Assembly (NCBI GenBank): GCA_000091205.1
Contig: AP006488.2
DNA: 64,000 nt
Source of the DNA: Cyanidioschyzon merolae
Taxonomy: Eukaryota
Strand: one strand, 5' to 3'
Positions 4,386-49,472 of the stretch are shown here, piece after piece. A program made the translations under genes and the position numbers. The notes beneath the pieces were generated by a model. It saw only the letters and a program-made list of their open reading frames with translations, did no database searches and was not told where the DNA came from. How positions within the stretch are numbered: the first letter of the stretch is position 1; each line of letters begins with the position of its first letter.

Positions 4386-5609
4386 TTACAGTGGATTCTT
4401 TTCAACGAGCTCGGCCGGGAGACTACGGATTCGAATCTTCAAGAACTGTTCGATTTGCTGTAATTGAAGTTTGTTTTCCTTGGTGATAATAGTGATTCCA
4501 ATGCCCCTTCGGCCAAATCTTCCACACCTTCCGACTCGGTGCACATAGATGCTCGGTTTCAACGGCACATCGAAGTTGATGACGAGTACAACCCCAGGAA
4601 TATCCAAGCCCCTGCTTGCAACATCAGTTGCCACGAGAACGTTCGTCGTTCCCGAACGAAACTTATCAATCGCTGCGACCCGCTTGTCCTGAGGCTTTCC
4701 CCCATGAATGCCCTGAACTTCAAAGCCACGGAGTGAGATTTTCTTCTCTAACCAATCTGCTTTCTTCGACTCGTTCGTGAATATTATGCACTGAGATCTG
4801 ACCAGGTATCGTGAAAAAATATCGAAGACTGCACTGAGCTTCCATTTTTCTTCAGGAACTTCAACACGATAGTGCTGAATGCCAGCGTGCCAGTATGCTT
4901 CCGTGCTGCCTGTTGTAATGAAGTGCATGTCCCTTCGAAGGAAATCATGCAGACTCTCCATACCTGACATTGATGCAGTTGCAGATACGACAACGACTTG
5001 ACAAGTTTCTGGCATTATTCTGCAAATACGGGACACTTGTTTCTCAAGGCCAGCCGAAAGCATCTCGTCAATTTCATCTATGACCAGCAAGCGCACCGTG
5101 TTAGCACTCATCGTTCCTGTATTTGAGAACTGTTGCAGAATTTTCCCAGGTGTGCCGCTCCATACGTGCGCGGCTCCTTTGACCTGGACTGCACCATGGC
5201 ATACCGAGCAACGCAGGCACACGTATTTAGAACCAATACGCTCGATCAAAACTGCTGTTTGCTGCGCAAGCTCTTTAGTCGGTGAAAGCAGAACAGCTTG
5301 GAGGCAGTTTTCTGCTGGGTTCACAACGTGGTTTACTGCTATGGCCAGCAGTGTGGTTTTCCCGCTTCCGCTGTGATCCTGCAATATAATATTCTCTTCT
5401 TTTATGATAAAAGGAAGGGCTTTGGCCTGGATTCCTGAAGGAATAAAAAAGGAGCACCGTAGTAGGCCACACTGAACTGCTGGTTTTAAGCCGAAATCAA
5501 GAAAAGATTGCTGCATGTCAGCAGACTGCGGAGGCAAATCGTCCCGCCACCACCTCTCCACAAATATGAGCACGCTTTCGCTTCTGGCAGAGGCAGCCCC
5601 AGGTTTCAC
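4386..5609 (-). CDS. ATP-dependent DEAD-box RNA helicase, eIF4A-like. The true start is probably the Met at about 5519; the ORF-track N-terminal extension (5520-5609) lies inside repeat R1 copy A.
   Basis: Read from the ORF translation: a Walker A-like DHSGSGKT, SPTKELA (motif Ia), VIDEIDEM (DEAD-box position, DEID variant), SAT motif (VVVSATAS) and motif VI HRVGRCGRFGRRG. Length of about 380 aa fits eIF4A. Confidence 0.8.
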   Translation of the reverse strand: MKPGAASARSESVLIFVERWWRDDLPPQSADMQQSFLDFGLKPAVQCGLLRCSFFIPSGIQAKALPFIIKEENIILQDHSGSGKTTLLAIAVNHVVNPAENCLQAVLLSPTKELAQQTAVLIERIGSKYVCLRCSVCHGAVQVKGAAHVWSGTPGKILQQFSNTGTMSANTVRLLVIDEIDEMLSAGLEKQVSRICRIMPETCQVVVVSATASMSGMESLHDFLRRDMHFITTGSTEAYWHAGIQHYRVEVPEEKWKLSAVFDIFSRYLVRSQCIIFTNESKKADWLEKKISLRGFEVQGIHGGKPQDKRVAAIDKFRSGTTNVLVATDVASRGLDIPGVVLVINFDVPLKPSIYVHRVGRCGRFGRRGIGITIITKENKLQLQQIEQFLKIRIRSLPAELVEKNPL

Positions 5610-7660
5610 ACACTACTCAAGCTCCGGCGTTGTCCGAAACACACTATCCTACACACTGCTCCCCAGCAGCAGGCGCGGAGACTGATGATCGTCTGGTCGG
5701 CCGCACGGCGCGCGGTGCCATGCACTGGAATCGGTAGGCAGCAGGTACCACAGCCTGCAGCGTATACGATTAGAAACGGCTATACTGAGCTATGGAAAAC
5801 GAGGTCTATGTTTTGTTGCAGCGAACCTCAGCCATAAATTGAGTATTCCCCATGAAAACCAGGAACGACCGTTCCAGGCAGAGCTTGCAGACGTTTGTTG
5901 TTTCGACGGTAGGTTTACCACGACGCGCATAAAAGTATTCCGCTCAGGTGCGGGCCACAAACACAGCCTCGAGCACAGTGCTCCTGCGAGCCGCGAGCGC
6001 CTTGATAACGTGTTGAGTAACGGGAGCAACGCGAACACAGCGGCGATGTGAACAGAACGTGCAGTCCTGCGGCCTGTCGCGCGCGAGATAGCGCTGTAAG
6101 AGTCGCGGTGTCGGGCTTTTTCGCGGACGCTCGCGTGAGGCCGAGTCTCGTGCAGCGCCCAGCGACAGACCACGTGCACTCGTGCACTCGACTGCGCGCT
6201 GCTGCCTGCATGTGCAGCACCAGCTCGGATACCAGCGTCAATGCCAGAGCTATCGAAACGCCAGGCTAGGATGGGCCAGTGAAGCGCTCGCTCTGTGCCT
6301 GCCTTTTGAACATTTCCCCGACTTTTCCTCGATACACGGCCTCGACATTCAATGTGCGGCTCTAACTGCTACTCGACTCAATGTTAGAGTTAGAATCCTC
6401 GGTCGTGTGTTCAGGGCGGCTCGTTTGACTCCTTTCTCCTGGCATTCGTGGCGCCAACGGAATCAAGATGACTCGGGGCGCCGTCGAACACGCGTTGGTG
6501 GCATATCCGAAAATATGGTTTTCCGGTTCGAGCGCCCAAGCGTCCACGCTTGTCCTTGCCTAAAATGTAGCCTGCCCGGATCACGCATGCTTCGCGTACT
6601 CAATGGACCTGCTTGGAGGCCACCCGTGGGCACTGCAATTTGTGCAGATGGATTTGCGAGGCGGACAACTCGACGTCGTGCCCTGGCGACATGCTCGCAG
6701 GCTCATGCCGGGCGTTCACTTTACTTGACACGCCGAATGGTGGATTCGGTTCGAGAGACCGATCGTGCGCTGCTTGCGGCCGTCGACGACTCGGCATTCG
6801 ACAGCAGCATGGTACCACTCAGGGCTGGTACGCTCGCAGATGTTCCTGTCTCCCCTGTTCGGACTGCAACGAGACATGCACCGGGCCTCGAGGCACCGCA
6901 TGGATCGCTCTCAGCAGAGCGTGCGTCACTGCTGAGCACGAAGCGAGTGCAGAGGGGTCGACACTTCTGGATCGACAGTTCTTGATCGAGCTCGTCTGTA
7001 CTGATATCCCAGAACTTGCATCGTCATCGACAACATTGCGTTCCGCAAATGCTTTGTCGAACGGAGCAACGAACGCATTCGTATGCAGCGGTTAGCGTAC
7101 TCGCCGAGTGATCGCCAAGAAGAAGCGGATCATCATCGCAGGGTCCGGCATCTGAAGCTGAGCCCGAGGGGGGCATTGACGGGTGTCGTCTGTAGCCATA
7201 GAAGGCATGCACTGAGCGACGGAGCTGGTGTCCTCGTCCCCCAGAGCAGCCCACGGAGGGGCAGGCGCAGTGGACACACAGGAATCGCGGATCACGGTGA
7301 TGGGTCCGCGCTGCAAAGCGCTTACCTGGGCTGTTTATAGAAGAGGTGCACGAATCGAGTGCGGCATGGACCCGAACTGCTGCCTGATGATGAAATGCGT
7401 TCGCGAGAGCGGGAAGCAGTAGAATCGGGGCTTGCGCGTTGCTATCAGCAGACCTCGACTGCTGAGACTGAACCATGAGGCACCGGAGAGACCTGCTCAT
7501 TTCAGGCGGGGGATGAGATAGAGAGCGATGAAAAGGTATCGGTTGCTGGAAAGCCCGGAGAGACTTGTAATGATGACAGTGGGAACTGACCGATTGTTTA
7601 TGGTGCACACCTGCTTTAGCGAAGTGGGACGCGTTCCACTTGAGTCTGACATGGGTATAG
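5535..7660 (+). repeat. R1 repeat copy A. GC-rich, about 2.1 kb, non-coding dispersed repeat; probably a non-autonomous mobile element.
   Basis: Near-identical to 22999-25095 and 27719-29105; the ORF track shows the same ORFs in all copies. Every frame on both strands is open (a GC-rich artefact), and no conserved protein domain was recognised. Confidence 0.85.
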
Positions 7661-8914: not shown

Positions 8915-10768
8915 TCATCTGTTGTCGCGTCCAGGCATGGCGCCTCCGTTTCCAAATAGTACGTGCCAAGCTTCCTCAGCGTCGCCGGAGACAAGATCGA
9001 CGATTGCAAACTCGGTCGGACTGGTACGATTGCAAAATTTTCCAGGGCATACGATGCAACATCCATGCGCCTCGCAAGCGAAATTGCTTTCAGATCCACC
9101 AATAACTAAAAGATCAGGACGCATTGGTTTCAGTTCTTGAACAAGACTATAATCTATAGGAATCTTCGAGCCAGAGGGATCATATGGGAATAAGGTGTCC
9201 TGCCGTATGATTTCTGCGCTGCATTCTTCCATACGTGGAATCTTGCTCCCTCCACAGAGGCACGAAAGGCGCATTTCATCCAGAATAGGCAAGTTCATGA
9301 TAGCGACTCTCATAGAGTCTCGTCGGTCGAGTTCGATGCGGAACGAAGTCGGGTTACCAATTTTGACTATCGGATCCGCAGAAAATTCGTATGGTTTTTG
9401 AGGAAAGACCGGTAAATGATGCATCAAGTCATCAATCGCTGGAGAGATCAGGAAGGTAGTTGACCGCATTTCTCGTGCAATATTTTGCAGCGCTTGGAGC
9501 ACCCTTTCTCCTTGCACGAATTTGTCCACAAGATTCAGTGTTGCGTCGCCCGCATCTGGATTCTCCTCAACAAGTGGGCCCATTATGCATACTGCATCAG
9601 GTTCCAGTTCCGCAACCTTTTTCTTCAAGAAATCGAATATGTCCCAGTCCGGGTCTTCAGGTTGAATATAGGGGCCTACCATGAGGAGAATCCTCCATTT
9701 CGGTCGTAAGCTGCTTGGTTTCATAGATACTACCCGCTTTCTCTGTCGAGGCACCTCTTCCGTTACAAACATATCATCTACAATTTGATGGACCTCAAAG
9801 ATATGCCCGGGTAGATCGAGGCCAACGAAACCGGCGACTTTGCCTGGATATAGCAAGTATGTATGCAGCTTTGACAGTTCAAGCTGCACCATCACACCTT
9901 CGTCGTCTTCAAGAAACACCTCTCGGTTACGTTCATGCCCTTGAATCGAAAACAACACTTGTCCGACAATGAAACGCCCATCAACAGGTTCTCCCGATGT
10001 TTCCATAAGACTCTCAATGCGTCCGGAACTTTGGAGGGCGTCAAAGGCGTCATGAATTCGCTTTCGTTGTGATTCCTTTCTTTTCTCTAGACAATCGAAC
10101 ATCAGCTTTTCAGGCCACACCTCAAGATCAAGCCCCGGCGGCGGACGAGTGATACGGAAGGATGGTCGCAGGTTTGCGCGAGAGGAATTTACGACAACCC
10201 CATCAACGCCATGCGAAGAAAGATCAACAAAAGGGTCCCGATGTGGAAACAGATCTAGAAACTCCTCCTGGGACTGCGTGCTTTCGGGCATGAATCCATG
10301 TTTTGGATGGGAACTCTCCGTCAGTGTGTCGCTCGAAAGATACGGATTTTCAGGTGAAACTGGGGCAGTTTGACGCTGCACCTCTGGGAGCGAGTGCTCC
10401 TCCGGCTTATCGACTGGCAGCGGTGCTCTCCGGCGAACCGCCTCCGCGATAAGTTCAGTAGACTCGGAAACTCTTGCCCGAGAGCACTTGCTCTTTTTGG
10501 CAGAGGCAGCGAGTTTCGAAGTGAACTCTTCAACTGTGTCCTCAGAAAGCTCCTTCCTCGTGTTCAAAAGGTACAGTTCGAGCTTCGCCGCAGTCGCTTC
10601 CAGGTCGATTCCGAGCTCTGAGCAGGTGCTCGCGAGCCTCGAGAGTGCAGCCCTAGCGCTCGAGACCGAGGCGTTCGCTAAGGAAGGATACCTTCTGAGC
10701 AGAAACTCCACAGCAACCGAAGTAGCCATGAGGTGAAAACAAGCCGAAAGTTTCGCACTTCTTGACAC
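8915..10768 (-). CDS. DNA polymerase alpha subunit B (Pol alpha/epsilon B-subunit family, POLA2-like)
   Basis: The C-terminal calcineurin-like phosphoesterase region matches the POLA2 pattern (LMVGPY..., IDYSLV...PDLLVIGGSESNFACEAHGCCIVCPGKF, compare human IDYESFY...PDVLIIPSELRYF...GCVCVNPGRL). Length of 617 aa fits. Confidence 0.6.
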   Translation of the reverse strand: MSRSAKLSACFHLMATSVAVEFLLRRYPSLANASVSSARAALSRLASTCSELGIDLEATAAKLELYLLNTRKELSEDTVEEFTSKLAASAKKSKCSRARVSESTELIAEAVRRRAPLPVDKPEEHSLPEVQRQTAPVSPENPYLSSDTLTESSHPKHGFMPESTQSQEEFLDLFPHRDPFVDLSSHGVDGVVVNSSRANLRPSFRITRPPPGLDLEVWPEKLMFDCLEKRKESQRKRIHDAFDALQSSGRIESLMETSGEPVDGRFIVGQVLFSIQGHERNREVFLEDDEGVMVQLELSKLHTYLLYPGKVAGFVGLDLPGHIFEVHQIVDDMFVTEEVPRQRKRVVSMKPSSLRPKWRILLMVGPYIQPEDPDWDIFDFLKKKVAELEPDAVCIMGPLVEENPDAGDATLNLVDKFVQGERVLQALQNIAREMRSTTFLISPAIDDLMHHLPVFPQKPYEFSADPIVKIGNPTSFRIELDRRDSMRVAIMNLPILDEMRLSCLCGGSKIPRMEECSAEIIRQDTLFPYDPSGSKIPIDYSLVQELKPMRPDLLVIGGSESNFACEAHGCCIVCPGKFCNRTSPTEFAIVDLVSGDAEEAWHVLFGNGGAMPGRDNR

Positions 10769-22906: not shown

Positions 22907-22998
22907 TGGACACTAACAACGCGATTGCGCTAGGAAACGAGCGCTTCCCGCGCCGCGGCGGGCCTCCCGACAGTGCCCCGTTGCTGCCCAGTTCGAGG

Positions 22999-25095
22999 CA
23001 AATCGTCCCGCCACCACCTCTCCACAAATATGAGCACGCTTTCGCTTCTGGCAGAGGCAGCCCCAGGTTTCACACACTACTCAAGCTCCGGCGTTGTCCG
23101 AAACACACTATCCTACACACTGCTCCCCAGCAGCAGGCGCGGAGACTGATGATCGTCTGGTCGGCCGCACGGCGCGCGGTGCCATGCACTGGAATCGGTA
23201 GGCAGCAGGTACCACAGCCTGCAGCGTATACGATTAGAAGCGGCTATACTGAGCTATGGAAAACGAGGTCTATGTTTTGTTGCAGCGAACCTCAGCCATA
23301 AATTGAGTATTCCCCATGAAAACCAGGAACGTCCGTTCCAGGCAGAGCTTGCAGACGTTTGTTGTTTCGACGGTAGGTTTACCACGACGCGCATAAAAGT
23401 ATTCCGCTCAGGTGCGGGCCACAAACACAGCCTCGAGCACAGTGCTCCTGCGAGCCGCGAGCGCCTTGATAACGTGTTGAGTAACGGGAGCAACGCGAAC
23501 ACAGCGGCGATGTGAACAGAACGTGCAGTCCTGCGGCCTGTCGCGCGCGAGATAGCGCTGTAAGAGTCGCGGTGTCGGGCTTTTTCGCGGACGCTCGCGT
23601 GAGGCCGAGTCTCGTGCAGCGCCCAGCGACAGACCACGTGCACTCGTGCACTCGACTGCGCGCTGCTGCCTGCATGTGCAGCACCAGCTCGGATACCAGC
23701 GTCAATGCCAGAGCTATCGAAACGCCAGGCTAGGATGGGCCAGTGAAGCGCTCGCTCTGTGCCTGCCTTTTGAACATTTCCCCGACTTTTCCTCGATACA
23801 CGGCCTCGACATTCAATGTGCGGCTCTAACTGCTACTCGACTCAATGTTAGAGTTAGAATCCTCGGTCGTGTGTTCAGGGCGGCTCGTTTGACTCCTTTC
23901 TCCTGGCATTCGTGGCGCCAACGGAATCAAGATGACTCGGGGCGCCGTCGAACACGCGTTGGTGGCATATCCGAAAATATGGTTTTCCGGTTCGAGCGCC
24001 CAAGCGTCCACGCTTGTCCTTGCCTAAAATGTAGCCTGCCCGGATCACGCATGCTTCGCGTACTCAATGGACCTGCTTGGAGGCCACCCGTGGGCACGGC
24101 AATTTGTGCAGATGGATTTGCGAGGCGGACAACTCGACGTCGTGCCCTGGCGACATGCTCGCAGGCTCATGCCGGGCGTTCACTTTACTTGACACGCCGA
24201 ATGGTGGATTCGGTTCGAGAGACCGATCGTGCGCTGCTTGCGGCCGTCGACGACTCGGCATTCGACAGCAGCATGGTACCTCTCAGGGCTGGTACGCTCG
24301 CAGATGTTCCTGTCTCCCCTGTTCGGACTGCAACGAGACTTGCACCGGGCCTCGAGGCACCGCATGGATCGCTCTCAGCAGAGCGTGCGTCACTGCTGAG
24401 CACGAAGCGAGTGCAGAGGGGTCGACACTTCTGGATCGACAGTTCTTAATCGAGCTCGTCTGTACTGATATCCCAGAACTTGCATCGTCATCGACAACAT
24501 TGCGTTCCGCAAATGCTTTGTCGAACGGAGCAACGAACGCATTCGTATGCAGCGGTTAGCGTACTCGCCGAGTGATCGCCAAGAAGAAGCGGATCATCAT
24601 CGCAGGGTCCGGCATCTGAAGCTGAGCCCGAGGAGGGCATTGACGGGTGTCGTCTGTAGCCATAGAAGGCATGCACTGAGCGACGGAGCTGGTGTCCTCG
24701 TCCCCCAGAGCAGCCCACGGAGGGGCAGGCACAGTGGACACACAGGAATCGCGGATCACGGTGATGGGTCCGCGCTGCAAAGCGCTTACCTGGGCTGTTT
24801 ATAGAAGAGGTGCACGAATCGAGTGCGGCATGGACCCGAACTGCTGCCTGATGATGAAATGCGTTCGCGAGAGCGGGAAGCAGTAGAATCGGGGCATGCG
24901 CGTTGCTATCAGCAGACCTCGACTGCTGAGACTGAACCATGAGGCACCGGAGAGACCTGCTCATTTCAGGCGGGGGATGAGTTAGAGAGCGATGAAAAGG
25001 TATCGGTTGCTGGAAAGCCCGGAGAGACTTGTAATGATGACAGTGGGAACTGACCGATTGTTTATGGTGCACACCTGCTTTAGCGTAGTTGGACG
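22999..25095 (+). repeat. R1 repeat copy B. Its right end is about 30 bp shorter than in copies A and C.
   Basis: Collinear with 5535-7660 at near-identity. Diverges from A and C after ...TTGGACG at about 25095. Confidence 0.85.
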
Positions 25096-27718: not shown

Positions 27719-29105
27719 GAATGGGCCAGTGAAGCGCTCGCTCTGTGCCTGCCTTTTGAACATTTCCCCGACTTTTCCTCGATACACGGCCTCGACATTC
27801 AATGTGCGGCTCTAACTGCTACTCGACTCAATGTTAGAGTTAGAATCCTCGGTCGTGTGTTCAGGGCGGCTCGTTTGACTCCTTTCTCCTGGCATTCGTG
27901 GCGCCAACGGAATCAAGATGACTCGGGGCGCCGTCGAACACGCGTTGGTGGCATATCCGAAAATATGGTTTTCCGGTTCGAGCGCCCAAGCGTCCACGCT
28001 TGTCCTTGCCTAAAATGTAGCCTGCCCGGATCACGCATGCTTCGCGTACTCAATGGACCTGCTTGGAGGCCACCCGTGGGCACGGCAATTTGTGCAGATG
28101 GATTTGCGAGGCGGACAACTCGACGTCGTGCCCTGGCGACATGCTCGCAGGCTCATGCCGGGCGTTCACTTTACTTGACACGCCGAATGGTGGATTCGGT
28201 TCGAGAGACCGATCGTGCGCTGCTTGCGGCCGTCGACGACTCGGCATTCGACAGCAGCATGGTACCTCTCAGGGCTGGTACGCTCGCAGATGTTCCTGTC
28301 TCCCCTGTTCGGACTGCAACGAGACTTGCACCGGGCCTCGAGGCACCGCATGGATCGCTCTCAGCAGAGCGTGCGTCACTGCTGAGCACGAAGCGAGTGC
28401 AGAGGGGTCGACACTTCTGGATCGACAGTTCTTAATCGAGCTCGTCTGTACTGATATCCCAGAACTTGCATCGTCATCGACAACATTGCGTTCCGCAAAT
28501 GCTTTGTCGAACGGAGCAACGAACGCATTCGTATGCAGCGGTTAGCGTACTCGCCGAGTGATCGCCAAGAAGAAGCGGATCATCATCGCAGGGTCCGGCA
28601 TCTGAAGCTGAGCCCGAGGAGGGCATTGACGGGTGTCGTCTGTAGCCATAGAAGGCATGCACTGAGCGACGGAGCTGGTGTCCTCGTCCCCCAGAGCAGC
28701 CCACGGAGGGGCAGGCACAGTGGACACACAGGAATCGCGGATCACGGTGATGGGTCCGCGCTGCAAAGCGCTTACCTGGGCTGTTTATAGAAGAGGTGCA
28801 CGAATCGAGTGCGGCATGGACCCGAACTGCTGCCTGATGATGAAATGCGTTCGCGAGAGCGGGAAGCAGTAGAATCGGGGCTTGCGCGTTGCTATCAGCA
28901 GACCTCGACTGCTGAGACTGAACCATGAGGCACCGGAGAGACCTGCTCATTTCAGGCGGGGGATGAGATAGAGAGCGATGAAAAGGTATCGTGTGCTGGA
29001 AAGCCCGGAGAGACTTGTAATGATGACAGTGGGAACTGGCCGATTGTTTATGGTGCACACCTGCTTTAGCGTAGTTGGACGCGTTCCACTTGAGTCTGAC
29101 ATGGG
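27719..29105 (+). repeat. R1 repeat copy C. It is 5'-truncated, begins at element position of about 733, and has a full right end.
   Basis: Identical ORF set to A and B (ORF track 27857-28435 and 28474-29058). Its right end matches copy A (...GAGTCTGACATGGGTAT). Confidence 0.85.
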
Positions 29106-29202
29106 TATCTCGGTCGCGTCAATGGCGTTCTCCGCTAAATTGCGTAGCGTTTCCGCCGTGGATGATTCGTCGCAAAACAAGTAACCGTTCTCAGGACACA
29201 AT

Positions 29203-31274: not shown

Positions 31275-31595
31275 ATGTATGAGGCAAGCCCCAAACGACT
31301 GCCCTTGAGTGAGGTTGTGAAGCAGGCGCCGCAGCAACTAGGTCATAAGCGTCTCGTGTGCAAGCCCCAAGAGCAGCAAGTTGCAGTTGTCCTTGCTGCA
31401 GGAAGTGGCACGCGTTTCCATTCAGAGACTCCAAAGGTGATCTACCCTTTAGATGGTAAACCGCTTGTCCGACACGTCGTTGAGGCCGTCGAACAGGTGG
31501 ACGTGCCCACCGTGGTTATCATCGGTCACGAAGGTAGTCGGGTGATGAAAGCTTTGGCGGATAAAAACGTAATATTCATAGAGCAAACTGAACGC
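31275..31595 (+). CDS. GlmU-type nucleotidyltransferase (UDP-GlcNAc pyrophosphorylase N-terminal domain), exon 1
   Basis: VVLAAGSGTRF...PKVIYPLDGKPLVRHVV matches bacterial GlmU (ILAAGKGTRM..PKVLH.LAGK.M..HV). The exon ends at a canonical GTAAGT donor at 31596. Confidence 0.65.
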
Positions 31596-31777
31596 GTAAG
31601 TTTTAACCACTGCAACTCTATGAACGGAGCGTGTGCTCGTTCAAGTCGCCCTATCAGGCCAGCAAGGCTTGCGCTGCGACAGCAGCTTTTGCTCTTCTAA
31701 CAAACACTTATTGCTCACGCTGTAGATTGGAATACTAACCATGCGCGTTAACACATGCACTTCGCACGCCGAGTCAG
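31596..31777 (+). other. Spliceosomal intron (GTAAGT...CAG, 182 bp) of the GlmU-like gene
   Basis: Splicing 31595 to 31778 restores the continuous GlmU motif FIEQTER|LGTAHAV (GlmU: V.Q.EQLGTGHA). The upstream frame is closed by TAA at 31736. Confidence 0.6.
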
Positions 31778-32377
31778 CTTGGCACCGCTCATGCTGTATA
31801 CCTTGCTCAGTACGCACTTCCGGAGCAATTTGACGGAGATATCATCGTTCTCTATGCTGACGTTCCCGGAGTCGATAAGGATCTGCTGCAGGCAGTCCTG
31901 GAGCGCAAACAAAACCATCGCCGTGCTGACCCCACCTTTGGTGCGCTGGTTGTTACCGGCAGCCGTTCACTCTCTCTCATGTCTGCATCAGGAAACTATG
32001 GTCGAATCGTGCGTGACGAGCAGGATCCTTTATGCATTCGTGAAATCGTAGAAAAGAAACAGATCGATAGCATGCCAGAAACGAATCCTCGAAAGCGCAT
32101 GCTCGCCGATTGCGATGAATTCAACTCTGGTATTTTCGTTGCCCGAGCCCCGGCACTGTTCAGAGCTCTCGGGAGTGTGCTTCCGCACAGAGTAGGTCAA
32201 CATCGTTGTGAGTACTATGCCACAGACTTTGTGGAGCACATGGTTGCATATGGCCTTCACGTTTATGCATGGCAGGTACCAGCTGCACTACAGTTCAAGA
32301 TAGAGGGTGCGAACACGTTGGAAGAGGCTCAAGAGCTCGAGCGGCGCTTGCGAACGCAGTCATCGAGCGGTAGATAG
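31778..32377 (+). CDS. GlmU-type nucleotidyltransferase, exon 2. It ends right after the linker helix; no left-handed-beta-helix acetyltransferase domain follows.
   Basis: LGTAHA, LVLYADVPGV, GYGRIVRD, EYYATD and EGANTLEEAQELERR parallel GlmU LGTGHA, LVLYGDVPLI, GYGRI.R, EYY.TD and EGVNNR.QL..LER. Confidence 0.65.
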   Translation, partial: LGTAHAVYLAQYALPEQFDGDIIVLYADVPGVDKDLLQAVLERKQNHRRADPTFGALVVTGSRSLSLMSASGNYGRIVRDEQDPLCIREIVEKKQIDSMPETNPRKRMLADCDEFNSGIFVARAPALFRALGSVLPHRVGQHRCEYYATDFVEHMVAYGLHVYAWQVPAALQFKIEGANTLEEAQELERRLRTQSSSGR

Positions 32378-32545
32378 ACGCATGCGGTACCGTTGTCAAA
32401 ATTTAAAACGGTAACGAATGTCGGCTCAACTTCCCGTGAGGAGTGCCGCTGCGTGTGGGTACGCTGTCATTCCAGGGGTAGAGAACCTGTTGCAAGCGGA
32501 CGAAACCAGCGCGGTTGCCTCAAATGCTTACCTCGCTTTTTTTCG

Positions 32546-34798
32546 GTTATACTCAAAGCACTGAATTTTGGAACAGCTGTGCTGGCTCACCTTTTATGTT
32601 TTTGTTTGTCTTTCTCTCAGGTCCCTCATAAAAGCAATCCATCCTTTGGGTGCGAGAACGCTCGCGGAAACACCAAAGGCCCTCACTGCCAGCTTGCGAG
32701 CACAACGGCTTCAGTTCTACGAGTGAGTCACTCAGTGGGTTCATCAAGCGAATGAGCTACACGTCGCCTGGCCCTGATCCTGGGGCTCGGGAGCCCAAAA
32801 CAGAACTTATCCAGCGCTACCCCAACGATTGCCTCTTCTTCAGCGCATTCCACTCCATGCGTACGCTGACAATGACTCCAAAACATGCCGCAGGATGTCG
32901 GGTTTCGACACCCTTCATACGAATGGTGATGAAGAGTCACCGATGGAATACGCAGAAGCACGCGGCTATGGGAGGCCTTTGCGCGTCGCATACCTGGTCA
33001 TCGATTCCGTATGGAAACACGAGCTCGTATTCCGCGGGCAACGGACGTTTGCCGCTCTCGATGAGACACGTCCAGCTACGGACGCTCGACATGTGGCTAG
33101 GTACGCCACGAAGGGCATATTGCCGTCCTACACGACGACACAAGCGAGCATGAAGCCACCATGTGCTCCAGTGGCGACCACATCCCGCAGTTGCCACCGA
33201 GCCGCCAAACAGACATGTCCCTTCGACACACCTGATCGTTCGTCGACGCACTTTTGGCTTCTTGGTCCCACTCTCATCTGCCGCGATCTCAGAAGAGATC
33301 GCTGTCCAGTACGCCGTAGGTGCCATCGAGTACACACGCGAGGGCGGCGTTGAGCGGCTCGGCGATCCTGCATACTGGTTCAGGTTCAGAGCAGTCATAG
33401 GCCCCTTGTCGGTTGTCAACCGCCATACAAGCGCTCGCGGATCTATAGACGACGAGTCGTTCGCATCCGTGGACCCGAAAGCCGCAGAACGCCTTCAGAG
33501 CTCGCGCAGCTTCGTTCCTGGCGGATGCTCGCGCAGCTTCTCTAGCTTTGGTGCACCTCGTCCAGCAGCAGCTGTTCAGAGCAGCTGCGCATGCAGAGGA
33601 GCCAGCTGTGCGCATTCCTCGGGGCGTGCTCGAGCGAGCCTTTCCGAGGCACAGTACAGCTGATGCTCTGCACAGAGGATACGATACGGCGTGCTCGTGA
33701 ACTAGCGGAATTGCAAACAAACACATAAACACACTTACTCACATACACATAAACACAAACACACGTTCTAGCGTACCTTGACCTGCACGCTACCGCATCA
33801 GCGAACGCAAGTGCTACAGTATAGGTCCCTGAAGGAATCGAATGAGCACCACTATCCTAGAGCAGCTGCAGTTCCGCGCTGAGCGCTCCATGAGGCGCAC
33901 GCTTTTGATGCCGCATCCTACACTCAGTGGCCGAGAAAAGCGTGACTGATGCAGCGGATTCATGGCGCGTCGATAGAGCTAAACTGCGGAATAGTGGCGG
34001 AGACTGCAGTGGCAGCGGACTCGGAAGCGCTGCCCCAACGCCAGCCAGAGTCGCCCTCGCACCGAGCCAACAAGCTGGCTTTCGCTAGCGCGTTCCGCGA
34101 GTCGGAGAACAAAGTGGCCGATCAACTGCGTCGTTTGGAGGGAGCGTACGGCGTGGAGCACGCTACAGCGCACAGGCGCTTCTCTCCATTTCGCTTGACA
34201 CGAGCGTACGTCGAGTGCAGCGATCGGCTCTGCAGGACGCTCACCGACGCGTTCAGCACACCGTACGCACAGCACGAGCACGAGCACGAGCACGAACTCA
34301 CAACGAAACAGGTAGCGTGGACGAGTGTGAAGCAGTGCCGGACGCTCTAGACGGTGTACGGCAAGCTTGCCGGACGTCCGACGGCGATGCAACTGGACGC
34401 GGCAGGCTCTCTGGGGCGTGACCCCACCCCCCCGGCAGCGACGTACTGTAGGGCTCTCACTCTCCCCGAAACTCGAACGCCAGGCTCAGCGTCTGGAAAT
34501 ATGTCGGGCGTGTGGAGCGTCCAGCGAGTTTGTGCCGAACGAGTTCGCCAACGAATCCACGAGGTCTCAGTGTGGGCGTTGCGGTGAAACGCGACAGACT
34601 ACCGATGCAGCACTATCAGAGGCGAGTTGCCAGGAGAGCGTGTCCAACGGGTTTCCACCTGGAGTTAGACACCGAAATGGTACGTTTCAGGAAACCAGCG
34701 AGTTTGGTGTGTCGTTTATATACACCGGGATCGGTTCTTCTTCGCGGATACTGAACGATAATGGTTTTCAGCTATTCGATGCTAATGAGTACTGGCGT
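32546..34798 (+). repeat. R2 repeat copy 1 (about 2.25 kb, GC-rich, non-coding). Termini are GGTTATACTCAAAG... and ...GATGCTAATGAGTA.
   Basis: Collinear with 39879-42145 and 46168-48423; the ORF track repeats identical ORF sets. Contains a CA-rich low-complexity tract near 33715-33765 and a (CACGAG)n microsatellite. Confidence 0.85.
34272..34296. repeat. (CACGAG)n hexanucleotide microsatellite, about 4 units, inside R2 copy 1
   Basis: Direct reading: cacgagcacgagcacgagcacgaac. The unit count differs among the three R2 copies (4, 7 and 5). Confidence 0.8.
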
Positions 34799-39878: not shown

Positions 39879-41605
39879 GGGTTATAATCAAAGCACTGAA
39901 TTTTGGAACAGCTGTGCTGGCTCACCTTTTATGTTTTTGTTTGTCTTTCTCTCAGGTCCCTCATAAAAGCAATCCATCCTTTGGGTGCGAGAACGCTCGC
40001 GGAAACACCAAAGGCCCTCACTGCCAGCTTGCGAGCATAACGGCTTCAGTTCTACGAGTGAGTCACTCTGTGGGTTTACCAAGCGAATGAGCTGCACGTC
40101 GCCTGGCCCTGATCCTGGGGCTCGGGAGCCCAAAACAGAACTTATCCAGCGCTACCCCAACGATTGCCTCTTCTTCTGCGCATTCCACTCCATGCGTACG
40201 CTGACAATGACTCCAAAACATGCCGCAGGGTGTCGAGTTTCCACACCCTTCATACGAATGGTGATGAAGAGTCACCGATGGAATACGCAGAAGCACGCGG
40301 CTATGGGAGGCCTTTGCGCGTCGCATACCTGGTCATCGATTCCGTATGGAAACACGAGCTCGTATTCCGCGGGCAACGGACGTTTGCCGCTCTCGATGAG
40401 ACACGTCCAGCTACGGACGCTCGACATGTGGCTAGGTACGCCACGAAGGGCATATTGCCGTCCTACACGACGACACAAGCGAGCATGAAGCCACCATGTG
40501 CTCCAATGGCGACCACATCCATCAGTTGCCACCGAGCCGCCAAACAGACATGTCCCTTCGACACACCTGATCGTTCGTCGACGCACTTTTGGCTTCTTGG
40601 TCCCACTCTCATCTGCCGCGATCTCAGAAGAGATCGCTGTCCAGTACGCGGTAGGTGCCATCGAGTACACACGCGAGGGCGGCGTTGAGCGGCTCGGCGA
40701 TCCTGCATACTGGTTCAGGTTCAGAGCAGTCATAGGCCCCTTGTCGGTTGTCAACCGCCATACAAGCGCTCGCGGATCTATAGACGACGAGTCGTTCGCA
40801 TCCGTGGACCCGAAAGCCGCAGAACGCCTTCAGAGCTCGCGCAGCTTCGTTCCCGGCGGATGCTCGCGCAGCTTCTCTAGCTTTGGTGCACCTCGTCCAG
40901 CAGCAGCTGTTCAGAGCAGCTGCGCATGCAGAGGAGCCAGCTGTGCGCATTCCTCGGGGCGTGCTCGAGCGAGCCTTTCCGAGGCACAGTACAGCTGATG
41001 CTCTGCACAGAGGATACGATACGGCGTGCTCGTGAACTAGCGGAATTGCAAACAAACACATAAACACACTTACTCACATACACATAAACACAAACACACG
41101 TTCTAGCGTACCTTGACCTGCACGCTACCGCATCAGCGAACGCAAGTGCTACAGTATAGGTCCCTGAAGGAATCGAATGAGCACCACTATCCTAGAGCAG
41201 CTGCAGTTCCGCGCTGAGCGCTCCATGAGGCGCACGCTTTTGATGCCGCATCCTACACTCAGTGGCCGAGAAAAGCGTGACTGATGCAGCGGATTCATGG
41301 CGCGTCGATAGAGCTAAACTGCGGAATAGTGGCGGAGACTGCAGTGGCAGCGGACTCGGAAGCGCTGCCCCAACGCCAGCCAGAGTCGCTCTCGCACCGA
41401 GCCGACAAGCTGGCTTTCGCTAGCGCGTTCCGTGAGTCGGAGAACAAAGTGGCCGATCAACTGCGTCGTTTGGAGGGAGCGTACGGCGTGGAGCACGCTA
41501 CAGCGCACAGGCGCTTCTCTCCATTTCGCTTGACACGAGCGTACGTCGAGTGCAGTGATCGGCTCTGCAGGACGCTCACCGACGCGTTCAGCACACCGTA
41601 CGCAC

Positions 41606-41648
<43 letters not shown>

Positions 41649-42145
41649 ACTCACAACGAAACAGGTAGCGTGGACGAGTGTGAAGCAGTGCCGGACGCTC
41701 TAGACGGTGTACGGCAAGCTTGCCGGACGTCCGACGGCGATGCAACTGGACGCGGCAGGCTCTCTGGGGCGTGACCCCCACCCCCCCGGCAGCGACGTAC
41801 TGTAGGGCTCTCTCTCTCCCCGAAACTCGAACGCCAGGCTCAGCGTCTGGAAATATGTCGGGCGTGTGGAGCGTCCAGCGAGTTTGTGCCGAACGAGTTC
41901 GCCAACGAATCCACGAGGTCTCAGTGTGGGCGTTGCGGTGAAACGCGACAGACTACCGATGCAGCACTATCAGAGGCGAGTTGCCAGGAGAGCGTGTCCA
42001 ACGGGTTTCCACCTGGAGTTAGACACCGAAATGGTACGTTTCAGGAAACCAGCGAGTTTGGTGTGTCGTTTATATACACCGGGATCGGTTCTTCTTCGCG
42101 GATACTGAACGATAATGGTTTTCAGCTATTCGATGCTAATGAGTA
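39879..42145 (+). repeat. R2 repeat copy 2
   Basis: Collinear with copies 1 and 3. (CACGAG)7 at about 41607-41650 and a poly-C tract ccccc(a)ccccccc at about 41774. Confidence 0.85.
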
Positions 42146-46167: not shown

Positions 46168-48423
46168 TCGGTTATACTCAAAGCACTGAATTTTGGAACA
46201 GCTGTGCTGGCTCACCTTTTATGTTTTTGTTTGTCTTTCTCTCAGGTCCCTCATAAAAGCAATCCATCCTTTGGGTGCGAGAACGCTCGCGGAAACACCA
46301 AAGGCCCTCACTGCCAGCTTGCGAGCATAAGGGCTTCAGTTCTACGAGTGAGTCACTCTGTGGGTTCACCAAGCGAATGAGCTACACGTCGCCTGGCCCT
46401 GATCCTGGGGCTCGGGAGCCCAAAACAGAACTTATCCAGCGCTACCCCAACGATTGCCTCTTCTTCTGCGCATTCCACTCCATGCGTACGCTGACAATGA
46501 CTCCAAAACATGCGGCAGGGTGTCGAGTTTCCACACCCTTCATACGAATGGTGATGAAGAGTCACCGATGGAATACGCAGAAGCACGCGGCTATGGGAGG
46601 CCTTTGCGCGTCGCATACCTGGTCATCGATTCCGTATGGAAACACGAGCTCGTATTCCGCGGGCAACGGACGTTTGCCGCTCTCGATGAGACACGTCCAG
46701 CTACGGACGCTCGACATGTGGCTAGGTACGCCACGAAGGGCATATTGCCGTCCTACACGACGACACAAGCGAGCATGAAGCCACCATGTGCTCCAGTGGC
46801 GACCACATCCCGCAGTTGCCACCGAGCCGCCAAACAGACATGTCCCTTCGACACACCTGATCGTTCGTCGACGCACTTTTGGCTTCTTGGTCCCACTCTC
46901 ATCTGCCGCGATCTCAGAAGAGATCGCTGTCCAGTACGCCGTAGGTGCCATCGAGTACACACGCGAGGGCGGCGTTGAGCGGCTCGGCGATCCTGCATAC
47001 TGGTTCAGGTTCAGAGCAGTCAAAGGCCCCTTGTCGGTTGTCAACCGCCATACAAGCGCTCGCGGATCTATAGACGACGAGTCGTTCGCATCCGTGGACC
47101 CGAAAGCCGCAGAACGCCTTCAGAGCTCGCGCAGCTTCGTTCCCGGCGGATGCTCGCGCAGCTTCTCTAGCTTTGGTGCACCTCGTCCAGCAGCAGCTGT
47201 TCAGAGCAGCTGCGCATGCAGAGGAGCCAGCTGTGCGCATTCCTCGGGGCGTGCTCGAGCGAGCCTTTCCGAGGCACAGTACAGCTGATGCTCTGCACAG
47301 AGGATGCGATACGGCGTGCTCGTGAACTAGCGGAATTGCAAACAAACACATAAACACGCTTACTCACATACACATAAACACAAACACACATTCTAGCGTA
47401 CCTTGACCTGCACGCTACCGCATCAGCGAACGCAAGTGCTACAGTATAGGTCCCTGAAGGAATCGAATGAGCACCACTATCCTCGAGCAGCTGCAGTTCC
47501 GCGCTGAGCGCTCCATGAGGCGCACGCTTTTGATGCCGCATCCTACACTCAGTGGCCGAGAAAAGCGTGACTGATGCAGCGGATTCATGGCGCGTCGATA
47601 GAGCTAAACTGCGGAATAGTGGCGGAGACTGCACTGGCAGCGGACTCGGAAGCGCTGCCCCAACGCCAGCCAGAGTCGCCCTCGCACCGAGCCGACAAGC
47701 TGGCTTTCGCTAGCGCGTTCCGTGAGTCGGAGAACAAAGTGGCCGATCAACTGCGTCGTTTGGAGGGAGCGTACGGCGTGGAGCACGCTACAGCGCACAG
47801 GCGCTTCTCTCCATTTCGCTTGACACGAGCGTACGTCGAGTGCAGTGATCGGCTCTGCAGGACGCTCACCGACGCGTTCAGCACACCGTACGCACAGCGC
47901 GAGCACGAGCACGAGCACGAGCACGAACTCACAACGAAACAGGTAGCGTGGACGAGTGTGAAGCAGTGCCGGACGCTCTAGACGGTGTACGGCAAGCTTG
48001 CCGGACGTCCGACGGCGATGCAACTGGACGCGGCAGGCTCTCTGGGGCGTGACCCCCACCCCCCCGGCAGCGACGTACTGTAGGGCTCTCACTCTCCCCG
48101 AAACTCGAACGCCAGGCTCAGCGTCTGGAAATATGTCGGGCGTGTGGAGCGTCCAGCGAGTTTGTGCCGAACGAGTTCGCCAACGAATCCACGAGGTCTC
48201 AGTGTGGGCGTTGCGGTGAAACGCGACAGACTACCGATGCAGCACTATCAGAGGCGAGTTGCCAGGAGAGCGAGTCCAACGGGTTTCCGCCTGGAGTTAG
48301 ACACCGAAATGGTACGTTTCAGGAAACCAGCGAGTTTGGTGTGTCGTTTATATACACCGGGATCGGTTCTTCTTCGCGGATACTGAACGATAATGGTTTT
48401 CAGCTATTCGATGCTAATGAGTA
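46168..48423 (+). repeat. R2 repeat copy 3
   Basis: Collinear with copies 1 and 2. (CACGAG)5 at about 47899-47926. Confidence 0.85.
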
Positions 48424-48440
48424 CAGCCTCCGTCACTCTT

Positions 48441-49472
48441 TCAGATAAAGAAACCAAAGCGCCCAATTTTCACTTCGAAACTGAGTTCACCCAATGCGCC
48501 AGTCACAAACCGGTACGAGCCTTCCATTGACCCAACCAACTCGCCCGCCGCAGCAGGCCTCTTGAGTTTTATGGGGCATGCCGAAGTGTAAGTGAACTCC
48601 TCACCGCGCTCCAGCACGGGTTGCTTGCCAATCACGCCGGGGCCGCGAACCTCGGAAACGAGGCCCTCCTTTGTCTGAATACGCCAATAGCGGGCAACGA
48701 GCTGGATGGTCTTCGACGTCTCATTCACAATGCGGACGTTATACCCGAAGAGATACTCCCCTGCCTCAGGTTTGGAGTCTTCGAGACGATAGAATGTTTC
48801 CACGCGAACGCGGACACCATTGTCCACCGTGTCGGTAACGTTTGTTAGTCTCTGCTCCGCCTCTTGTGAAGAAGCAGGCGCTGGATTCGGCGTCGAACCG
48901 AAGGCTGCTTCAAGTCGCTTCAAGGCAGCCGAGAGCTCCGGCGAGGGTTTCGGATGCCTTGAGCCCCGCTTTCGACCCGCCTCCGGGAACGCGCTCCTTC
49001 TCGTGTCGGACGCCTTGCGACCAGTGTCTTTTTTCTGTGGTCCGGTACGTTTTTCCACAGCATGTTCCACTGGCGGCGGCGACTCCTTCGACAGCGCCTC
49101 ACGGAGCGCTTGAATCTCCTCTTCGCGCTTTGCCTCCTCAGCTTTCAGCAACGCCTGCTTGAGGTAGACGAAGCGGTCCGTTTGACGCGCTTCGTGCGCT
49201 TCATCTCGCAAACGTGCCGCATCCTCGAAACGCTCTTCTTCCACAGCACGTCGAACTTCCTCTTCGAGATGAAAGATGCGTTTCCAGAGAGCTCTGCGCG
49301 AGTTTTCGTCAAGTCGTGGCGGTGCTCTTTGAAGCGAATCCAGGCCGTTCACACACATTCGCGGACGTCGACCACGAGCCGTGGCAGTCGGAAACCGCAC
49401 ATGACCCACACGAACGCACTTGTAGCTCGCCCTGGGTGCCTTGGGTAAGAAAAAACTCACGTTTGCAAACAT
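48441..49472 (-). CDS. ApaG (DUF525) domain protein with an N-terminal UVR-like helical motif (FBXO3 C-terminus / POLDIP2-like)
   Basis: The C-terminal 125 aa (GVRVRVETFY...YLFGYNVRIVNETSKTIQLVARYWRIQTKEGLVSEVRGPGVIGKQPVL.RGEEFTYTSACP) fit the ApaG fold signature. The N-terminal WKRIFHLEEEVRRAVEEERFEDAARLRDEAHE resembles a UvrB/C motif. Confidence 0.7.
   Translation of the reverse strand: MFANVSFFLPKAPRASYKCVRVGHVRFPTATARGRRPRMCVNGLDSLQRAPPRLDENSRRALWKRIFHLEEEVRRAVEEERFEDAARLRDEAHEARQTDRFVYLKQALLKAEEAKREEEIQALREALSKESPPPVEHAVEKRTGPQKKDTGRKASDTRRSAFPEAGRKRGSRHPKPSPELSAALKRLEAAFGSTPNPAPASSQEAEQRLTNVTDTVDNGVRVRVETFYRLEDSKPEAGEYLFGYNVRIVNETSKTIQLVARYWRIQTKEGLVSEVRGPGVIGKQPVLERGEEFTYTSACPIKLKRPAAAGELVGSMEGSYRFVTGALGELSFEVKIGRFGFFI

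Follow-up and report, generated by a model that had tools for sequence, protein, structure and literature searches.

A predicted single-domain GlmU-type uridylyltransferase encoded by an intron-bearing gene in the red alga Cyanidioschyzon merolae

UDP-N-acetylglucosamine, or UDP-GlcNAc, is essential for N-glycosylation and for glycosylphosphatidylinositol (GPI) anchors in every eukaryote, and textbooks give the last step of its synthesis to UAP1/AGX. The mutase AGM1 makes GlcNAc-1-phosphate (GlcNAc-1-P), the substrate of the uridylyltransferase reaction of bacterial GlmU. We describe here a gene of GlmU type at positions 31275 to 32377, on the + strand, of a 64,000-nucleotide (64-kb) stretch of Cyanidioschyzon merolae contig AP006488.2 (GenBank assembly GCA_000091205.1), hereafter called the window.

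The closest described systems are bacterial. In the bifunctional GlmU of Escherichia coli (P0ACC7; PDB 1hv9/1fwy), a helical arm (Leu230-Ala250) links the uridylyltransferase domain to a GlcN-1-P acetyltransferase domain made of hexapeptide repeats, a left-handed β-helix (LbH), and the truncated uridyltransferase domain is active alone, trimerization not being required (PMC10087520). UDP-GlcNAc synthesis from GlcNAc-1-P and UTP has been demonstrated for a monofunctional GlmU-N enzyme, GlmUCc (Ccan_15070), which makes UDP-GlcNAc in Capnocytophaga canimorsus; enzymes of this kind are widespread in Bacteroidetes (PMC4358021). UAP1/AGX1 (UDPGP, PF01704), of which the same reaction is expected, belongs to a different family with a distantly related nucleotidyltransferase fold (PMC10087520), so that the initial annotation of this locus went too far in calling UAP1 unrelated: structurally, it has a distant kinship with the GlmU N-domain.

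The window protein shares with bifunctional GlmU the same fold, collinear motifs, 13 conserved residues, and an end at the same helical arm. At 31% identity to the E. coli enzyme, it differs in lacking the LbH domain, and hence an LbH-mediated trimer, in having an N-terminal extension of ∼30 amino acids (aa) and insertions before YGRIVR and between the positions of E154 and N169, in the replacements M19→F, G104→A, L108→G, and I198→A, and in being encoded by a nuclear gene with an intron. GlmUCc and the ∼250-aa forms of Bacteroidetes and other bacteria of the FCB group likewise consist of the uridylyltransferase domain alone and end after a G-x-N-T-L-E-E-L helix. The monofunctional bacterial forms compared here, which did not include Ccan_15070 itself, are ∼32 to 35% identical to the window protein, no nearer to it than bifunctional GlmU, and lack the eukaryotic extension and insertions. 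With its domain standing alone and its active site intact, the window protein is of the monofunctional GlmU-N type. Public databases already hold homologues with automatic annotations, and the enzyme type is proven in bacteria; what appears to be new, from the literature searched, is the eukaryotic evolutionary context. As a whole, the explanation that we favor, with a probability of about 70%, is that the gene encodes a cytosolic monofunctional GlcNAc-1-P uridylyltransferase acquired long ago from bacteria.

A GlmU uridylyltransferase domain without its acetyltransferase partner

The reading frame opens with an ATG at 31275, with an in-frame stop 16 codons upstream, and the coordinates initially assigned to the gene proved exact on rereading. 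Its features are as follows.

31275-31595, + strand: exon 1, codons 1 to 107, comprising the N-terminal extension, the first Rossmann strand, and the nucleotide-binding signature, up to IEQTER
31275-31379, + strand: N-terminal extension, aa 1 to 35, ahead of the GlmU-like fold (homologue alignment and AlphaFold2 model)
31392-31418, + strand: signature loop LAAGSGTRF, aa 40 to 48, aligned with L11-M19 of E. coli GlmU (G43 = G14; catalytic R47 = R18), followed by K54 = K25
31596-31777, + strand: spliceosomal intron, 182 nucleotides (nt), phase 0, with an in-frame stop at its 35th codon
31733-31740, + strand: branch-site motif TACTAACC; its branch A, at 31738, precedes the 3' splice site by 39 nt
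31778-32377, + strand: exon 2, codons 108 to 306 plus the stop (32375-32377), comprising the LGTAHA uracil-binding loop, YADVPG, NYGRIVR, IVEKK, EFNSG, EYYATD, and EGANT, then the terminal helix
32318-32368, + strand: C-terminal α-helix (AlphaFold2), aa 288 to 304, the counterpart of the first part of the GlmU helical arm; with it the protein ends, lacking an LbH domain

Three of the four motifs from which the GlmU assignment was originally made are literal (LAAGSGTRF, aa 40 to 48; LGTAHA, aa 108 to 113; EYYATD, aa 252 to 257); the fourth, given as GYGRIVRD, reads G-N-YGRIVRD (aa 179 to 187).

Three kinds of comparison identified the 306-aa spliced product. Pfam returned generic nucleotidyltransferase domains alone (NTP_transf_3, 4e-19), with no UDPGP (PF01704) match at an E value of ≤0.1 and no Hexapep match. 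In NCBIfam, the ten top matches were all GlmU models, the best being TIGR01173 glmU (E = 1e-44); rmlA_long (TIGR01208) gave a partial match at 2.9e-10. The TIGR01173 match spans only profile positions 3 to 240 of 452, and its score of 153.2 bits lies below the curated cutoff of 366.85 bits, so that the window protein does not count as an equivalog of bifunctional GlmU. A sequence search of the PDB placed GlmU in all of the top 17 positions (E = 2e-29 to 1e-17), the alignment stopping at GlmU residue ∼243 to 248, followed by YngB, IspD, and mannose-1-phosphate guanylyltransferases at 8e-5 and worse; GDP-mannose pyrophosphorylase chains reached 1.6e-3 at best. An AlphaFold2 model made from an alignment of 20 sequences (mean pLDDT, 86.7) gave the same answer. 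Foldseek ranks 1 to 37 against the PDB were all GlmU (E = 6e-24 to 1e-15; TM score of ∼0.7 over ∼272 columns), and ST0452, GalU, MurU, and GDP-mannose pyrophosphorylases followed from ∼4e-13 (the last at ∼3e-12). No UAP1/AGX chain appeared among the PDB sequence matches or the top 50 fold matches. The proposal of a GlmU domain standing alone is thus borne out by profile, sequence, and predicted fold, and the outcome that would have told against it, a better match to GDP-mannose pyrophosphorylase or another generic eukaryotic nucleotidyltransferase, did not occur; RmlA was weaker as well.

The open reading frame (ORF) had been described as stopping where the acetyltransferase β-helix would begin, and the protein does end at the helical arm. 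No match to the LbH domain (GlmU residues 250 to 456) was found anywhere in the window by tblastn with two full-length GlmU sequences (E ≤ 10). A downstream LbH exon was considered and rejected, that search of the whole window being empty.

Sequence and residue numbering of E. coli GlmU were checked against PDB 1fwy/1hv9 before alignment to the window protein. All 13 catalytic or ligand-binding residues checked are conserved (E. coli residue first): G14 = G43, R18 = R47, K25 = K54, Q76 = Q104, G81 = G109, T82 = T110, Y103 = Y133, D105 = D135, G140 = G182, E154 = E199, N169 = N223, T199 = T256, and N227 = N286. The GlmU signature L-x2-G-x-G-T-x-M-x4-P-K is present as LAAGSGTRFHSETPK, which includes R47 and K54 and deviates only in M→F. 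K15 is replaced by S44, at a position that varies in bacteria too. By homology to the E. coli enzyme, R47 and K54 would act on the phosphates, Q104 and G109 would read the uracil, D135 and N286 would hold the metal, and T110, Y133, G182, E199, and N223 would hold the GlcNAc moiety.

A conserved intron in a cyanidiophycean nuclear gene

Without splicing, the reading frame ends at 141 aa, inside the intron; it begins again at 31778 with LGTAHAV. Removal of the 182 nt joins IEQTER to LGTAHAV in phase 0 and restores both motif and frame. Both exons are covered: matches of GlmU and of red-algal homologues by tblastn extend over 31287-31613, exon 1 is syntenic with positions 9439-9759 of metagenomic contig L001, and exon 2 matches the stand-alone Cyanidiococcus protein (P0121) over 31775-32359 with 67% identity (E = 6e-87).

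The intron signals are GTAAGT at 31596, ACTAACC at 31734-31740, and CAG at 31775-31777. ACTAACC occurs only once in the window, on either strand, and the composite GTAAGT…ACTAAC…YAG occurs once on both strands together, at this site. Because about one such composite is expected by chance, the pattern by itself is not significant and does not prove an intron. Orthologous genes provide the stronger evidence, as two further introns lie at the identical phase-0 codon boundary, before LGT[AG]HA.

Window: 182 nt; 5' GTAAGT, branch ACTAACC, 3' CAG; junction EQTER / LGTAHA
L001: 181 nt; 5' GTAAGT, branch ACTAACC, 3' TAG; junction EQSQR / LGTGHA
L007 (Cyanidiococcus-like): 193 nt; 5' GTAAGT, branch ACTAACC, 3' TAG; junction EQDER / LGTAHA

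At the DNA level, exon 2 of the window and that of L001 share 64% identity, and the introns share ∼52%, near noise. The deposited Cyanidiococcus protein KAK4530879.1, an NCBI model spliced at this point, reads through the junction as …VEQVERLGTAHAV…. A preprint reports a GUAAGU/ACUAACC consensus for introns of Cyanidioschyzon, Cyanidiococcus, and Cyanidium and counts just 39, 40, and 54 introns in those three genomes, spliced with an efficiency of 42 to 50% (bioRxiv 10.64898/2026.05.17.725761). The window intron carries all three signals: the consensus 5' site, the branch site, and an AG 3' site. On account of the restored frame and motif, the conserved position in two orthologues, and the matching consensus signals, the intron is, with high probability, real, as had been suggested from its boundaries and the restored EQTER/LGTAHA motif. 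For a gene of the cyanidiophycean lineage to have an intron is uncommon.

The nearest relatives of the protein are KAK4530879.1 of Cyanidiococcus yangmingshanensis (annotated as a hypothetical protein; identity of 66% in a local alignment and 62% at full length) and a metagenomic protein, P0002, carried on contigs L001 to L004. These contigs are collinear with 19 to 49 kb of the window and share the gene order CDP-alcohol phosphatidyltransferase (CDP-OH_P_transf), SPC12 (a signal peptidase subunit), the GlmU-type gene, Mem_trans (on the opposite strand), protein kinase (Pkinase; 81% identical), prefoldin, and DUF525. Protein identities among the window, L001, and Cyanidiococcus are ∼60 to 63% for the GlmU-type protein, which fits the genome-wide amino acid identity of 65% between C. 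merolae and Cyanidiococcus given in the same preprint (bioRxiv 10.64898/2026.05.17.725761). Judged from these comparisons, the gene is nuclear, has two exons, and belongs to a cyanidiophycean red alga from the Cyanidioschyzon/Cyanidiococcus group. The early argument against bacterial contamination, made from the intron, is upheld by the synteny with eukaryotic neighbors and by the same-position intron in two other algae.

Comparison of window positions 19000-49500 with L001 positions 1-20540 showed gene order kept over eight genes, the window being ∼1.5 times longer, largely through intergenic repeats; DUF525, the last gene (window 48441-49472), is inverted relative to L001. A dispersed repeat of ∼2.25 kb is present in three copies (32543-34792, 39880-42145, and 46168-48424; 98.3 to 98.8% identical), which begin 124 to 543 nt past the stop codons of + strand genes, namely, the GlmU-type, protein kinase, and prefoldin genes. 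It lacks long ORFs, its ends carry neither direct nor inverted repeats of ≥18 nt, and it is absent from the more compact syntenic contig L001. A second dispersed repeat (family A) occupies 5531-7631 and 22995-25095 (2.1 kb; 99.4% identical), with a partial copy at 27721-29108 (1.39 kb; 99.2 to 99.6%); it contains two opposite-strand ORFs of 267 aa and 234 to 237 aa, with no Pfam match. No tRNA gene or Rfam family reached threshold anywhere in window positions 1-64000.

A eukaryotic clade and its AGM1 fusions

A profile made from the closest 20 sequences was used in one word-indexed and one exhaustive search. In the former, full-length members of a eukaryotic clade scored at E values of ≤1e-54 and bacterial sequences from 7e-40; in the latter, an AGM1 fusion protein (P0238) scored 1e-44 and a 132-aa fragment 6e-42, with bacterial sequences from ∼1e-36. 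The score gap between the clade and bacteria is therefore narrow. All named nonfused members are red algae (Cyanidiococcus, Galdieria phlegrea, G. yellowstonensis, Porphyridium purpureum, Timspurckia, Pyropia, Porphyra, Gracilaria, and Agarophyton), and the clade is present in all sampled red-algal classes. Database labels include "Bifunctional protein GlmU" for the P. purpureum member and "UDP-N-acetylglucosamine pyrophosphorylase" for that of Gracilaria. Pfam detected no hexapeptide/LbH domain in any eukaryotic clade member. The idea of a truncated GlmU, implicit in the initial annotation, does not hold, in that the single-domain form is common to the whole clade and exists in bacteria too (PMC4358021).

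A neighbor-joining (NJ) tree with Kimura distances was built from 224 domain sequences, including ∼165 of the most similar monofunctional and bifunctional bacterial sequences. The eukaryotic set (red algae plus Rhodelphis and Cyanophora) was monophyletic in all 200 bootstraps, as was the group of window, L001, and Cyanidiococcus proteins. Within the eukaryotic clade the NJ tree is unreliable: Rhodelphis and Cyanophora grouped in only 36 of 200 replicates, and the branch leading to the cyanidiophycean trio is long. In this tree, monofunctional and bifunctional sequences are mixed in the bacterial sister group. Monofunctional forms of ∼250 aa dominate the best noneukaryotic profile matches; mean identities to bacterial sequences (32.1% for short forms, 32.9% for bifunctional ones) give no separation favoring the short forms, and identity to the nearest bacterial sequences is ∼33 to 35%. 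The clade motifs EYYATDFV and DEFNSGI gave 73 pattern matches in 185,579 prokaryotic genomes, none of them homologous. A single transfer from a bacterium to a eukaryote, before red algae, Rhodelphis, and glaucophytes diverged, would account for this distribution. The best reading of these comparisons is that the gene was acquired from bacteria early in the non-green Archaeplastida; an old horizontal acquisition, as first suggested, agrees with the span of the clade and its monophyly relative to the nearest bacterial sequences.

A domain of the same clade forms the C-terminal part of AGM1 fusion proteins in Rhodelphis marinus (EP00736_P000065), Cyanophora paradoxa (EP00741_P007748), Cyanidiococcus (CCYA12G3272; P0379), Cyanidium caldarium (CDCA12G3462), and two metagenomic algae; the fusion set comprises P0238, P0379, P0381, P0226, P0227, and P0234. 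According to Pfam, a complete phosphoacetylglucosamine mutase of eukaryote type (AMG1_II/III, PF21404/PF21405; PGM_PMM_I/IV) makes up the N-terminal part. The fusions share with the window clade the derived motifs LAAGxGxRF, DNPG, EF[NY]SG, E[YF]YATD, and LEGxNT; they differ in carrying the mutase and are 30 to 41% identical to the window protein. Since the 1,087-aa fusion is a single uninterrupted ORF at two loci (L005, 7442-10705, encoding P0238; L006, 1724-4987), it is not an artifact of gene models. AGM1 being the maker of its substrate, this linkage is strong contextual evidence that the clade acts as a GlcNAc-1-P uridylyltransferase, and the fusion would be a two-step enzyme leading from GlcNAc-6-P to UDP-GlcNAc. 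GlmU-N-like domains in the bacterial score range were also seen with other fusion partners, namely, an APH-type kinase, a phosphoglucomutase domain of generic type, and a PP-loop ATPase (P0272, P0289, and P0322), which suggests that the domain has been joined repeatedly to upstream pathway steps. A literature search that did not cover every journal, and whose topics included UAP1 in Cyanidioschyzon, found no paper on the eukaryotic GlmU-N clade or on AGM1 fusions.

Cyanidiococcus has two paralogues, one stand-alone (P0121) and one fused (P0379), and both forms likewise occur in the L001/L005 organism: the two samples that yielded L002 and L004 are also the source of fusion P0238, which is ∼65% identical to the Cyanidiococcus fusion, a distance equal to that between the stand-alone copies. 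Cyanidiophycean algae thus carry a fused and a stand-alone copy, and we infer that the source genome of the window also has an AGM1-fused paralogue. The description of a GlmU-type domain alone was accurate for this gene and missed a second copy, fused to AGM1, in the same lineage. In P0238 and P0379 (motif REFYSGIM), the GlcNAc-binding residue N169 is replaced by Tyr, and P0238 in addition has Y103→His; the stand-alone copies keep the Asn, as do the fusions of Cyanidium, Rhodelphis, and Cyanophora. The fused uridylyltransferase domain of the Cyanidiococcus/L005 lineage may be degenerating or changing specificity.

Function, alternatives, and implications

The 306-aa enzyme would most likely convert GlcNAc-1-P and UTP to UDP-GlcNAc and pyrophosphate with Mg2+ and, by analogy with the truncated bacterial domain, would work without the LbH-mediated trimer of GlmU. 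Because it has no acetyltransferase domain, it would rely on the eukaryotic order of steps, in which GNA1 acetylates GlcN-6-P and AGM1 makes GlcNAc-1-P. Among red algae, Porphyridium expresses GNA1 (PMC12843361); with this acetylation step available in red algae, the acetyltransferase domain would not be needed.

The rival to be taken most seriously keeps the fold and chemistry and changes the substrate: the AGM1-fused copy would make UDP-GlcNAc, and the stand-alone enzyme would activate GalNAc-1-P, Glc-1-P, or GlcN-1-P or use another nucleoside triphosphate. Several observations lean this way and weigh against our assignment. The eukaryotic clade has insertions beside the sugar-binding lobe (∼6 aa before YGRIVR and 10 to 40 aa between E199 and N223) as well as M19→F and PL→PG changes; the window protein has Ser in place of K15; ST0452, MurU, and GalU, as examples of GlmU-like folds, illustrate that specificity can drift; and with two copies in Cyanidiales, including the paralogues of Cyanidiococcus and the L001/L005 organism, one may have shifted specificity. 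The cytosolic location, too, is no more than probable, being judged by N-terminal composition. However, the window protein keeps every uracil and GlcNAc contact of E. coli GlmU, and the copies in which N169 has been lost (to Tyr) are the fused ones of Cyanidiococcus and L005. Stand-alone forms, moreover, occur in red-algal classes in which no fused copy was found. A different substrate is thus unlikely, although we would give it more weight than either of the alternatives that follow.

The transit peptide or organelle-targeted enzyme proposed in the initial annotation fares less well. On that account, the first 30 to 35 aa would direct the protein to the plastid or mitochondrion, where it would supply UDP-sugar; an N terminus ∼30 residues longer than that of bacterial GlmU, with a net charge of +3 in the window copy, would agree, and bacterial ancestry would suit an endosymbiont-derived pathway. 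The extension is short, however (aa 1 to 35; AlphaFold2 pLDDT, 54 to 71, with a single short helix at aa 11 to 16), and aligns with a lineage-specific extension that is conserved across the red-algal family and does not vary freely. In the orthologues it contains 6 to 10 acidic residues, with a net charge of −4 to +1, which is unlike a transit peptide and is the reason for placing the enzyme in the cytosol. In the fused relatives, moreover, the domain stands behind a cytosolic-type AGM1. Nor are red algal plastids known to possess a peptidoglycan wall for which UDP-GlcNAc would be required. We regard an organelle isoform as improbable. A more trivial explanation, that the locus is a contaminant, a very recent transfer, or a dead GlmU gene truncated by a repeat, could draw on the bacterial-type sequence and on the 2.25-kb dispersed repeat that starts at 32543, 166 nt past the stop codon. 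Truncation by that repeat was rejected: clade members, those at repeat-free loci included, all end at the same helix without an LbH domain. The synteny with eukaryotic genes, the orthologous intron in two other algae, the intact active site, the identity of only ∼33 to 35% to the nearest bacteria, and the absence of the clade motifs from the 185,579 prokaryotic genomes effectively exclude this explanation.

A cytosolic GlcNAc-1-P uridylyltransferase remains the reading we prefer. It can be extended into a broader scenario that, taken jointly, is tentative and more probably wrong than right in some part. Red algae, Rhodelphis, and glaucophytes would use, instead of UAP1, a GlmU-derived enzyme acquired near the base of Archaeplastida, welded at first to AGM1 as a two-step enzyme leading from GlcNAc-6-P to UDP-GlcNAc. 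The stand-alone copy would have arisen in red algae. In Cyanidioschyzon/Cyanidiococcus the fused copy would have lost its GlcNAc-binding Asn, and the intron-bearing stand-alone gene would have become essential, and inefficient, light-dependent splicing may gate its output.

If the functional prediction holds, an entire branch of Archaeplastida has an enzyme derived from GlmU, sometimes fused to AGM1, for the UDP-GlcNAc step, and if UAP1 is absent there, an essential enzyme would have undergone nonorthologous displacement. Shared by red algae, Rhodelphis, and glaucophytes, the GlmU-derived enzyme would also provide a useful marker of their relationship. C. merolae is genetically tractable, and the gene, one of very few with an intron in such algae (39 to 54 introns per genome in three relatives), would offer a handy substrate for their reduced, U1-less spliceosome.

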